Part shown: positions 2,876 to 11,994 of the stretch, one piece after another | How the letters are laid out: the number at the start of each line of letters is the position of its first letter | Numbering within the stretch: the first letter of the stretch is position 1 | IMG/VR virus record: IMGVR_UViG_2703718672_000013 | Length of the DNA stretch: 12,078 bases | Reading direction: 5' to 3' (one strand) | DNA from: a virus | Taxonomy: Duplodnaviria; Heunggongvirae; Uroviricota; Caudoviricetes | Made by a program: the position numbers and the translations under genes | Notes under the pieces: model-generated | What the model was told of the DNA's origin: nothing | The model's input: only the letters and a program-made list of their open reading frames with translations | The model's database searches: none

Positions 2876-3054
2876 TATCGCGTCCTCAACAATGAATTTT
2901 GTGATGCGGTGCCTGGTGCCTCCAGGTGACGTTAACCAGTTAACAATTAACGCCGGATACAGAGCATTCTCGTTACTCAGCAAATGACCGCTTTACCGAT
3001 TTAACTGTTCCGCGTGCGCTGAGCCGCATTCACCGCATCACAAAATTCACTTTT

Positions 3055-3113
3055 AAAAAAGGGCGGCAGAGCAGTTACGGAGTAAAACTGATACCGCCAA
3101 ATGTCACCAGAAT
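3055..3113 (-). ncRNA. dicF: DicF-like small RNA (ftsZ-targeting sRNA family of Qin/Rac-type prophages)
   Basis: Minus-strand sequence ATTCTGGTGACATTTGGCGGTATCAGTTTTACTCCGTAACTGCTCTGCCGCCCTTTTTT is near-identical to my recollection of E. coli DicF, ending in a U-run; located immediately upstream of the DicB-like gene in the same orientation. Confidence 0.7.
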
Positions 3114-3448
3114 ATTGATAACAGAGGGCGTTGCAGCGGGGTTGTCACTTAAGCGTATGGTCAACCTGACAACCCGGTGTCCTCAACGGGGAAAGAATAA
3201 CCCCGCCATACTTACCGCCGCGCCATTTCGCGGATTGCCACAACCGGAAGCGCACGGTCGAATTAAATTTAACGACGGCTCTAAGGGAGAAGGACTTCGC
3301 CGTGCACTTTCGTGTTATGCCCTGACTTTTCAGGGATATATCCTTTCAGTAAACTGTCAGTGCCGGATTCTTATCTGTGTCCGGCGCACGACCACACGTA
3401 GCAGCGTGTTGGTCTCCATTTTTAATTCAGCCCTTAATGGAGGATAAA

Positions 3449-3634
3449 ATGCCAAACAAACCATGCCCTGCCTGTAACGCTCTTTCTGGCTTTTTAGAGA
3501 AGGGCGGTTATTACATTTTTAACTGTCCAGAACATGTTGAATTTCATATATCAAAACTTGACAGTATCATTACAAAGCCAAATCAGTATCAGTCTGATTT
3601 ACTGAATAAAGAGTTAAACGCCGCCCGAGATTAA
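3449..3634 (+). CDS. Small hypothetical protein (61 aa) with zinc-ribbon-like cysteines (C-P-A-C ... N-C-P-E-H), encoded antisense to the leftward operon
   Basis: ATG at 3449 preceded by GGAGGA (3439-3444) at 5-nt spacing; the track ORF 3377..3634 contains this start internally. No homolog recognised. Confidence 0.35.
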   Translation: MPNKPCPACNALSGFLEKGGYYIFNCPEHVEFHISKLDSIITKPNQYQSDLLNKELNAARD

Positions 3635-3671
3635 GGGCGTAGTGGCCCATTAAAAATATTGCAAAGACCAA

Positions 3672-4210
3672 CTATTGTTGAACTGGATTAAACCAGTAAT
3701 TCTCTATTGCTCTTATTGTTACCATCGGATGATTGCCGGGGGTTATTTTAAGTTCGGGAGGAAAAGGCTCTCCATCAGCAGCCATCATTGAGTATGTGAA
3801 ATCCGCCGACGCAGTCCCTTTCATGATAATTCCGAATTTTTCAAGTAATGAGAGCAGTTCCGGTAATCCTGTGTCATCTGAATAACTTTCCTCATAGAAA
3901 GAAGCGATTGCCGCAGGAGATGACAGTTCTCGCTCTGCAATTTTTTTGTAGTTTTCCAGAATTCTTTTTTTGAATACTTTTCCTCGACATGAAAACCCAT
4001 CACCGAGGCAATCCGCTTTGCAGTTTCTTCAGTATTCTGGTTGTTTGTTACCGAAACAGAGTACAATCCGGTAAACGCATCGCGCACATTACGAGCCATA
4101 TTATCAATGTATTTCTTCGTTGCAGATTCTAATTCAACTTCGTTCAGACGTTGGTGAAGTGCATGTGCTGCAATTTCCTGGATTTCTTTTAGTAAATCTT
4201 TAAATTCCAT
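3672..4210 (-). pseudogene. Hypothetical leftward-operon gene disrupted by a frameshift in an A7 homopolymer (T-run 3965-3971 on plus strand); N-terminal about 80 codons in one frame, about 95 further codons in the -1 frame
   Basis: Track ORF 3821..4210 turns low-complexity after ...MGFHVEEKYS; the -1 frame from the A-run gives a protein-like continuation (KKRILENYKKIAERELSSPAAIASFYEESYSDDTGLPELLSLLEKFGII...NYWFNPVQQ) to a TAG at 3672. ATG at 4210 follows the upstream gene stop by 12 nt. Confidence 0.5.
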
Positions 4211-4784: not shown

Positions 4785-5072
4785 TCAGATAGAGAAGGGA
4801 AATTGTCGCCGAGAATGTGTCACGCTTACAATCTCAATGCTTGAAGCAGCTACTCTGTACAGGATTATGTAGTTAGGGTGGGTCACGATCTCTCTCAATC
4901 CAGAAACCCGTTCGCTTGGTGGATATAAGTACGGATGCTCAGATAGAGGTAATACCGATGTTTCAATGCGTATTTTTAGTCTACGTGCTGCCGGTGGGTT
5001 CTCCTTGGCGATGTAAGTTATGATCTGGCGCAAATCATCGCGAGCAGACGGTAGCCATAAAATGGGTAACAT
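4785..5072 (-). CDS. parE: ParE/RelE-superfamily type II toxin (95 aa)
   Basis: ParE-like pattern W..SA..DL..I..YIA..NP.AA......E....L...P..G........LRE......YI.LYRV....IEIV.V.H.RR; start overlaps the upstream stop (TAATG). Confidence 0.78.
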   Translation of the reverse strand: MLPILWLPSARDDLRQIITYIAKENPPAARRLKIRIETSVLPLSEHPYLYPPSERVSGLREIVTHPNYIILYRVAASSIEIVSVTHSRRQFPFSI

Positions 5073-5263
5073 TACTCGCTCTTGTTAGTTACAGCAATTT
5101 GAGCAATAAGATTTTCCATTTCAGCCATTACCTCGTCATGTGGAATTGCGGGGCGAGTGTCTGCAAGGCTTGACGTTACTTTAGTGCGCAACCATTCGTT
5201 GTAACTGTTTTCTTGTTCGGTAGTTTCGAATTCTGAAACTATCGGAGAAAGGGCTGTACCCAT
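5072..5263 (-). CDS. Small antitoxin (63 aa), PaaA-like partner of the ParE-family toxin
   Basis: GAGGAG Shine-Dalgarno 7 nt upstream of ATG at 5263; 1-nt stop/start overlap with the toxin; 63 aa, acidic; resembles my recollection of PaaA2 from E. coli O157 three-component paaR-paaA-parE systems. Confidence 0.68.
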   Translation of the reverse strand: MGTALSPIVSEFETTEQENSYNEWLRTKVTSSLADTRPAIPHDEVMAEMENLIAQIAVTNKSE

Positions 5264-5290: not shown

Positions 5291-5692
5291 TCACGCCCGG
5301 CGGCTTTTTTGTGCCGCCAGCCACCTAGCAATGGTTTCTTCCATTGATTTTTTCTTGTCTTTGATTTCTTGAAGCATTTTTTCTTGGTCTTCCTCAGGAA
5401 ACGCACTAAAAGCTTGGAGCAGTTCGCGTTGGCGAGGACCAATTTTCATCGTGTCAGGGGTGAAAATTTGCTCACACTCTTCAGGAGGCAATAAAAACCA
5501 ATGCAATGGATGCCCTGAAACCTCAACCAGTTTATCCAAACTTGAGGCTTTAGGTGTAGCCTTACCGCTGACCCATTGTTGAACAGTTTGTTGTGTCACA
5601 CCAATTCTACGGGCAAGCTCAGCCTGGCTCCATCCAGTTTCCTGAAGAAGCTTGCTGATTCTGTACATAGATACTTCTAGGGCGCTCATCAT
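5291..5692 (-). CDS. cI/RacR-like prophage repressor, HTH (XRE family); probably also the transcriptional regulator (PaaR-like) of the downstream toxin-antitoxin pair
   Basis: HTH segment LLQETGWSQAELARRIGVTQQTVQQWVSG; divergent from the Cro-like gene across a palindromic operator; ends 27 nt before the antitoxin. Start uncertain (5692, 5689 or 5668). Confidence 0.8.
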   Translation of the reverse strand: MMSALEVSMYRISKLLQETGWSQAELARRIGVTQQTVQQWVSGKATPKASSLDKLVEVSGHPLHWFLLPPEECEQIFTPDTMKIGPRQRELLQAFSAFPEEDQEKMLQEIKDKKKSMEETIARWLAAQKSRRA

Positions 5693-5729
5693 TATTCAAT
5701 TTTACAGGTAAATACTGTTAAAAGCATCA

Positions 5730-11234: not shown

Positions 11235-11781
11235 GCGTTCTCCCCATGAGCATTAAAGGATGCTTAAGATATGCTATGTCACTGATAAAAAATTTGTTGT
11301 GTGTGTTTAGTTATTTTATCTACCTCCATTATGATTTAAGACTGATATATGTTATCAGCAAAGGTACATCGTTATTATTTTACCTGTCAATACATTTGAT
11401 ATTGATTATCGTTTACATCGCTTGCTTAGGAAATTGAAGGCAGGTAACTATCATGTCAATGAACTAACCCACAGTCTAACGTACTTCTTTCCCCAATCAC
11501 CAACAACCAAATTCCTGTTATCACCACTGGGATTTTGGCGCAACTTCATGGTGCAGAGGTAAATAGCATCAAGCAAAATCTCTTTTTCCGTTGTTGTCCT
11601 TATGGGACGTCTGTCTTTCTGACCGATTTCATATTGGCGAGGTAATGGGAAGTTAAGTAGAATAGCTGCGGGTGCTTGAGGCTATCTGCCTCGGGCATGA
11701 ACACCAACGGCAGATAGAGAAAAGCCCCAGTTAACATTACGCGTCCTGCAAGACGCCTAACATTAATCTGAGGCTCAATCT

Positions 11782-11994
11782 ATGAACGGCAAATCTAGGT
11801 TAGCCTCTTACGTGCCGAAAGGCAAGGAGAAGCAGGCTATGAAGCAGCAAAAGGCGATGTTAATCGCCCTGATCGTCATCTGTTTAACCGTCATAGTGAC
11901 GGCACTGGTAACGAGGAAAGACCTCTGCGAGGTACGAGTCCGAACCGGCCAGACGGAGGTCGCTGTCTTCACAGCTTACGAACCTGAGGAGTAA
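11782..11994 (+). CDS. mok-like overlapping reading frame of a hok/sok-type type I toxin locus
   Basis: 70-aa ORF that contains the hok-like frame, the arrangement of mok/hok; GAGG upstream of ATG 11782. Confidence 0.5.
   Translation: MNGKSRLASYVPKGKEKQAMKQQKAMLIALIVICLTVIVTALVTRKDLCEVRVRTGQTEVAVFTAYEPEE
11839..11994 (+). CDS. hok: Hok/Gef-family type I toxin (51 aa membrane peptide)
   Basis: MKQQKAMLIALIVICLTVIVTALVTRKDLCEVRVRTGQTEVAVFTAYEPEE matches the Hok family signature (LTRKSLCEIR...EVAAF.AYE) as I recall it; a 9-bp hairpin lies in the leader (11682-11717). Confidence 0.78.
   Translation: MKQQKAMLIALIVICLTVIVTALVTRKDLCEVRVRTGQTEVAVFTAYEPEE

Follow-up and report, generated by a model that had tools for sequence, protein, structure and literature searches.

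A DicF leader and an apparently damaged accessory-gene cassette adjoin in a lambdoid prophage of Escherichia coli O157:H7

What occupies the stretch between the small RNA DicF and the gene upstream of it in the leftward operon of a lambdoid prophage? The question is raised by the window analyzed here, a DNA of 12,078 nt from a lambdoid prophage of Escherichia coli O157:H7, in which the region 3113-3671 holds, on the minus strand, only reading frames of 33-36 aa, none of them annotated; the original prediction had described a gap of about 560 bp with no minus-strand reading frame. E. coli O157:H7 chromosomes contain bases 3000-3800 with 100% identity; among the 5426 complete E. coli genomes searched, at least 80% of this segment is present in 405 and some part of it was matched in 4571. 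The original prediction had noted in the gap a plus-strand open reading frame (ORF) of 61 aa and several strong hairpins, and had offered three readings: a moron with its own promoter, the precursor leader from which DicF is released by processing, or a structured RNA. We consider it probable that two features lie there side by side, the DicF leader (3113 to about 3390, minus strand) and a damaged accessory-gene cassette (from about 3390 rightward).

The leftward operon, as annotated by RefSeq in one matching genome, includes the genes for an HTH repressor, RelB/RelE, DUF1391 (ydfA), YdfB and a 129-aa hypothetical protein and, after a gap, dicB, DUF1482 (ydfD) and an exonuclease. The leader would be a part of this leftward early operon, the order of which would be repressor, relBE, ydfA, ydfB, the gene of the MEFKDL family described below, leader, DicF, dicB and ydfD. 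The relB/relE type II toxin-antitoxin pair is annotated at 4785-5263 (minus strand), with the prophage repressor gene on one side and ydfA on the other. A full-length match to the sok antisense RNA (11670-11844, plus strand; Rfam RF01794, 105.6 bits) points to a type I toxin-antitoxin locus of the hok/sok kind at the window's right end, and the DicF-dicB intergenic region carries a sub-threshold Rfam match to STnc100 (2898-3047, minus strand; 33.6 bits against a gathering threshold of 47, E 2e-5).

The DicF leader and its folding

DicF in its 53-nt form was located at 3061-3112 on the minus strand by a full-length match to Rfam RF00039 (76.9 bits against a gathering threshold of 48). Immediately 5' of DicF and on its strand, the untranslated DicF leader (pre-DicF) was recognized at 3113 to about 3390 by its homology to the ydfC-dicF spacer of the K-12 prophage Qin; copies of this leader in many phages are about 91-92% identical. 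The alignment with K-12, phage Tritos, O26 and ETEC4079 runs from DicF to the breakpoint CCGGCGCACG (3380-3389), beyond which K-12 and Tritos diverge completely from the window, and the limit of the leader is this sharp mosaic junction at 3389/3390. The distance from the end of ydfC to dicF in Qin is 340 nt, and the leaders of the two prophages are about equal in length. The K-12 spacer is a long untranslated region (PMC5069750), the RNA of which is converted by RNase III into a 190-nt species and by RNase E into the 53-nt DicF (PMC10448788; PMC5069750). This processing was demonstrated in K-12; the window prophage differs from Qin in that the upstream gene is not ydfC and in that another module follows beyond 3390. 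The leader as the untranslated precursor of DicF is already known, and the reading of the gap as a precursor leader is supported for 3113 to about 3390 by the alignment with the K-12 spacer together with the literature. It does not extend to the last 60 bp before the ATG of the plus-strand ORF (3390-3448), which fall outside the K-12-type leader and form a translation-start element instead.

Both of the hairpins expected from the original prediction are present. The hairpin GGGTTGTCA / TGACAACCC (3139-3147 with 3167-3175) was read directly from the sequence, and 94-99 of 101 homologues retain its pairs 3175:3139 and 3174:3140, while the hairpin GCCGGA / TCCGGC (3362-3367 with 3380-3385), both arms of which are kept in most leader variants, is the last element of the conserved leader. 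These hairpins are explained as parts of the DicF leader structure. Between them, a long stem, the probable substrate of RNase III, was predicted on the minus strand at 3246-3311 (arms at about 3297-3311 and 3246-3261), in the single-sequence fold and again when 101 distinct homologues, drawn from IMG/VR and other loci, were aligned and folded. The stem has a conserved base and an apical part that is hypervariable in both length and sequence. It would stand where the 190-nt species made by RNase III in K-12 should start: counting 190 nt from the 3' end of DicF, a projection by length only, leads to about 3249-3250, within the 3' arm of the stem. We infer that K-12-type processing by RNases III and E would operate also in the window prophage, and that RNase III would cut near 3250. 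The polycistronic leftward RNA would be cut by RNase III within the stem at 3246-3311 to yield a pre-DicF of about 190 nt, as in K-12 Qin, and RNase E would cut at the 3112/3113 boundary to yield the 53-nt DicF. Within the leader, the minus-strand hairpin CCCTGAAAAGTCAGGG (3320-3336) is a boxB/nut-like candidate, resembling lambda boxB, the sequence of which is GCCCTGAAAAAGGGC.

The folding of this region bears on another reading, in which 3114-3448 is an independent structured RNA, such as a plus-strand antisense RNA, a long 5' UTR opposing the DicF precursor or a cis-regulatory element. Such an element would fit with the folding, which on either strand exceeds in strength that of shuffled sequence (z -3.3 and -3.2), with the very high conservation across E. 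coli and with a hairpin that occludes the Shine-Dalgarno (SD) sequence and is conserved in two sequence variants. The alignment fold was better on the minus strand (-39.9 kcal/mol, 45 pairs) than on the plus strand (-25.3 kcal/mol, 35 pairs), and in the counts of G-U versus A-C pairs by strand, each strand's own prediction selects its own G-U pairs, so that these counts do not separate the strands. The independent RNA is opposed, however, by several observations. Rfam gave no family besides DicF at the gathering threshold in 3114-3700, and a permissive E-value scan of the same segment gave only a chance-level snoRNA match (E 2.9), located inside the ORF. A sigma-70-like plus-strand promoter was not found in 3113-3448 by manual reading and by a consensus scan, which is a weak test, nor was an additional promoter found in the dicBF operon of K-12 (PMC10448788). 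Finally, processing by RNases III and E explains the conservation and the stem. An RNA element of its own is thus quite improbable, and the structure of this stretch is accounted for by the DicF leader.

Two other candidates within the leader were rejected. The putative promoter TTGCCA-17-TCGAAT (3236-3264) was discarded on account of its -10 hexamer, which is not conserved. A 110-aa plus-strand ORF across the leader (3115-3447) was discarded as a coding sequence, having no family match, a diversity of 0.138/0.145/0.146 at the three codon positions, i.e. without codon periodicity, and an apical segment that measures 41, 42, 43 or 44 nt in homologues and so breaks the frame.

In several prophages, the leader and the terminator hairpin are retained, with a different 5' part at the DicF position (window-equivalent 3055-3125), as seen in L003 (1154-1250), L026 (18-110), L012 and others. 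The variant of ETEC4079 and L026 reads ...TTTGGCGGCATCAGTTTCATTGCTGGCTGATGTCCGCCC, and that of L012 is a short TTCGGCGGAAATGGATATCCGCCC form; the DicF position of ETEC4079 gave no Rfam match to DicF. Judging from these sequences, the variants may represent small RNAs that are like DicF but differ in the seed region.

The small plus-strand gene and its convergent partner

The 61-aa ORF lies at 3449-3634 on the plus strand, with the translation MPNKPCPACNALSGFLEKGGYYIFNCPEHVEFHISKLDSIITKPNQYQSDLLNKELNAARD, and the properties first ascribed to it were all confirmed: the orientation against the operon, the strong SD sequence (GGAGG at 3439-3443, 5 nt ahead of the ATG) and the motif CxxC...CPEH (CPAC at residues 6-9, CPEH at residues 26-29). 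It is annotated by PGAP as the hypothetical protein WP_001133046.1, on which accession a literature search found no paper, and it matches over its full length the profile of phrog_10133, a family of unassigned function (E 7.3e-48, ORF residues 1-61 on profile positions 5-65 of 65). The exact 61-aa protein was found on at least 1000 contigs, always unnamed. All homologues are longer, 80-91 aa, and include P0002 (84 aa, 95% identity, with four extra N-terminal residues), an 80-aa relative found in ETEC4079 and on six IMG/VR contigs (66% identity), and P0005 (91 aa, 48% identity). A HMMER search against 1.84 billion representative proteins gave P0005 as the single true distant relative, the two top hits being long repeat proteins and spurious; no relatives were found in a scan of one genome per species, and tblastn against 50,697 deposited phage genomes gave nothing significant.

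The short length of the ORF, the lack of a Pfam or NCBIfam domain and the very small number of relatives among the representative proteins might suggest a chance open frame. In the comparison of the window with the ETEC allele, however, the ORF frame has a dN/dS of 0.18, against 0.49-1.25 for the remaining five, and because dN/dS is low only in its own frame, the ORF is, as judged from these alleles, a once real, selected gene. The metal-ligand residues C6, C9, C26 and H29, invariant in all homologues down to 48% identity, and the full-length match to the PHROG family also speak against a chance frame, which is extremely improbable and effectively refuted by the dN/dS result.

The AF2 model of the 84-aa relative P0002 (pLDDT 74) consists of four short strands (positions 7-9, 16-22, 25-30 and 34-39) and a helix. 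With its knuckles CPxC and CPxH about 16 residues apart and the predicted beta-hairpins, the protein is like the zinc ribbons (Pfam Zn_ribbon_TFIIB, PF13453), and this model suggests that the product is a zinc-ribbon-like Cys2/Cys-His protein plus a helix. Among the curated zinc-ribbon HMMs, the best was PF13453 with 14.6 bits, below its cut-off of 22; the 61-aa form gave no domain match in Pfam and NCBIfam, the best hit in a PDB sequence profile search had an E of 0.026, and no informative fold match was found for the ORF product.

Alignment with these relatives indicates a feature that was missed in the original prediction, namely that the ORF 3449-3634 ends at a premature TAA (3632-3634). 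This nonsense codon, codon 62 of the small gene, is TCA in the intact allele, as aligned with the Logan contig L026. The old reading frame continues past the TAA through the former C-terminal 18 codons, GRSGPLKILQRPTIVELD, and ends with the ancestral stop codon at 3689-3691; this segment (3635-3691, plus strand) is an in-frame match to the tails of P0002 and the ETEC protein. The longer relatives all run past residue 61, and two E. coli lineages end in ...RPxxVELD, a tail that is conserved where it is kept in E. coli lineages (dN/dS 0.17). WP_001133046.1 is thus an 80-aa zinc-ribbon-like protein in an allele cut short by a nonsense codon, differing from the intact relatives in other prophages by the loss of 19 C-terminal residues, and the 61-aa ORF is an already annotated member of its family, uncharacterized and damaged. 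The only allele with an intact codon 62, that of L026 (Logan SRR14842321), starts with ATA and not ATG (L026:419-424, equivalent to window 3449-3451), and because of this replacement the gene caller started its ORF at an upstream ATG inside the SD sequence; the partner gene of L026 is intact.

The convergent partner on the minus strand (3672-4210) had been described as frameshifted, and this proved correct. It belongs to a family with the N-terminus MEFKDL..., the intact 179/186-aa gene of which is matched in two frames; tblastn with the intact 186-aa protein of ETEC4079 gave 3938-4210 in one frame and 3675-3998 in another. The frameshift arises because one T is missing from the run at 3941-3947: blastn of L026 against the window gave T7 in the window and T8 in the intact allele of this near-identical contig, which encodes an intact partner protein of 179 aa. 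Only 3821-4210 (129 aa) of the partner gene is annotated by PGAP, and its C-terminal 50 codons survive at 3672-3824. The partner family consists only of hypothetical proteins of E. coli and Salmonella, without Pfam domains.

All O157-type copies examined carry both the TAA and the partner frameshift. Owing to the nonsense codon in the small gene and the 1-nt deletion in the partner, the O157:H7 copy of the cassette is most likely an eroding relic. The 61-aa product might nevertheless be a functional moron protein that is expressed in the lysogen and acts alone, for instance with its zinc ribbon bound to nucleic acid or to a host protein, the loss of 19 residues being tolerated or adaptive. The strong SD and the retention of the complete Cys2/Cys-His core and the helix imply that the product could be active, and 382 complete genomes have the allele in fixed form, at an identity of at least 99%, besides its occurrence on the 1000 or more contigs noted above. 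The clone O157:H7 is young, however, so that fixation in it is a weak sign of selection; in addition, the lost tail is under constraint where it persists, these copies also have a broken partner gene, and a promoter was not found. An active 61-aa protein is therefore rather unlikely, and the eroding relic is the reading followed below.

The accessory slot beside the leader

The segment between the leader and the ATG (3390-3448, plus strand) is a translation-start element, composed of a hairpin (3390-3414), the sequence CTCCATT (3414-3420), which is complementary to AATGGAG (3436-3442), and the SD sequence. It is near-identical among the plus-strand ORF types of the window's sequence group, absent from K-12 and Tritos, and common to O26-type, ETEC-type and other cassettes that contain different ORFs. 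The O26 slot, for example, holds a 69-aa MPNKKRNPLIEKQ... protein, for which the SD and the first four codons are as in the window. The SD lies inside a local hairpin in most variants, which is a weak indication, and the start element may have a regulatory role. From about 3390 rightward, the cassette would thus begin with the hairpin/ribosome-binding-site element, followed by the small plus-strand gene, which in its intact 80-aa form would stand tail-to-tail with the leftward partner gene and overlap its 3' end.

A total of 133 leader-carrying segments were compared, among which 62 have the K-12 arrangement without a cassette; in 52, there is a plus-strand ORF that belongs to one of at least 10 unrelated types. 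The slot ORFs stand behind one of two versions of the hairpin plus SD, and most of them are tail-to-tail with the leftward gene, the MEFKDLP N-terminus of which is conserved and the C-terminus variable; in most cassette types, the ORF and its partner abut or overlap by 0-131 nt. The association between the ORF type and the C-terminal type of the partner is mostly one-to-one, with the exception of the partner types C5, found with two different ORFs or none, and C4, found with two or none. Since this coupling is not strict, the linkage of ORF and partner may be only physical.

One cargo resembles a known protein. The slot in L119 and L124 holds a 94-aa plus-strand ORF that matches Pfam GhoS with 21.2 bits against a threshold of 21 and faces a 48-aa leftward ORF, not the MEFKDLP gene. 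This GhoS-like ORF stands behind the same start element in these other prophages, but GhoS (type V antitoxin endoribonuclease, PF11080) is unrelated in sequence to the window ORF, and the likeness shows only a possible cargo of the slot. The other slot cargoes gave no matches, PADLOC included.

Morons of lambdoid phages are accessory genes located between conserved genes, such as bor and lom of lambda, and classical morons carry a promoter and a terminator of their own. The window ORF is similar to these in being small, present or absent, swapped between homologous prophages and oriented against the operon, and it is an accessory gene variably present between conserved flanks. It is different in that neither a promoter nor a terminator of its own was found, no clear terminator being detected between the convergent genes, and in that the unit of swapping shares the start element and abuts the 3' end of a variable gene. 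Of the proposed moron with its own promoter, the part concerning a selected family in a variable slot against the operon was upheld, but not the part concerning the promoter. The description of the slot may be new in detail, and it fits ordinary lambdoid mosaicism and moron biology.

Possible ancestral function of the gene pair

The zinc-ribbon family is represented in three lineages, in all of which the convergent gene carries the same C-terminal domain. In prophages with P0005, the partner has 135 aa and lacks the MEFKDL domain (31% identity, E 1e-13), the two genes overlap by about 119 nt, and neither DicF nor the leader is present. In one prophage of this type, L008, the cassette lies between direct repeats of about 45 nt (4918-4962 and 5650-5695) with the sequence aagctattagtgcgcct.tctttt..ccactt.aggctcggtgg. 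A query segment containing the left repeat gave matches in 852 E. coli genomes, and the match of phage SfV to this query adjoins or overlaps an annotated putative terminator; some variants have a motif similar to the repeat in place of a part of the DicF leader.

The co-occurrence of the pair across divergent elements, in three lineages, one of them in a context without DicF, with other cassettes mixing partners, is the background for considering its function. The small protein probably acted together with the C-terminal domain of the partner; ancestrally, the two would have worked together. Because there is no space for a terminator between the two genes, expression of the small gene is probably anticorrelated with transcription of the leftward operon. 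Matches pointing to a function were found neither among known domains and defence systems nor among folds, and toxin, antitoxin and defence models of Pfam, NCBIfam and PADLOC were negative against both proteins.

A more specific proposal is that the zinc-ribbon protein and the C-terminal domain of the partner constituted an ancestral two-protein system, be it toxin and antitoxin, effector and immunity protein, or phage exclusion with self-protection, and that pairs of this kind have a hotspot in the slot. The three lineages retain the pair at identities as low as 48% and 31%, and one of them does so outside the DicF context; the association of ORF types with C-terminal types is mostly one-to-one, a GhoS-like cargo of a type V antitoxin family occurs at the slot, and both members are inactivated together in the window, all of which are in favour of this proposal. 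It is weakened by the absence of matches to toxin, antitoxin and PADLOC models, by the convergent layout, which is atypical of protein-protein toxin-antitoxin pairs, by the partner types C4 and C5 with different ORFs or none, and by L026, in which the small gene has no ATG while the partner is intact; the AF2 model of the partner is unusable (pLDDT 47). We hold such a two-protein system to be unlikely.

Equally tentative is a wider view of the locus as a dedicated exchange slot beside the DicF leader, in which the start element drives interchangeable genes of polymorphic two-protein systems with expression flipped by the state of the prophage. Each small gene would then be locked tail-to-tail to a leftward gene with a constant N-terminal and a matching variable C-terminal domain, the pair representing an effector domain and its small cognate partner, e.g. 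in exclusion or in a toxin-antitoxin-like system; expression would flip between the lysogenic and lytic states through convergent transcription, and the zinc-ribbon gene of the window would be one decayed member. A dedicated slot of this kind is doubtful, and the reading that we prefer is still that of the DicF leader and, next to it, a damaged accessory-gene cassette.

For the biology of DicF, the likely stem for RNase III and the boundaries of the conserved leader are now placed in a prophage of EHEC. For annotation, WP_001133046.1 is a truncated allele and the 129-aa "hypothetical protein" next to it covers only the first half of a gene with a frameshift, and both are unsuited as references for their families; the window's own copy of the cassette is probably not the one to study. 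If the idea of the exchange slot is true, these prophages of E. coli would offer a compact and easily cloned set of uncharacterized small-protein pairs, which would be open to screening for phage exclusion or toxicity.
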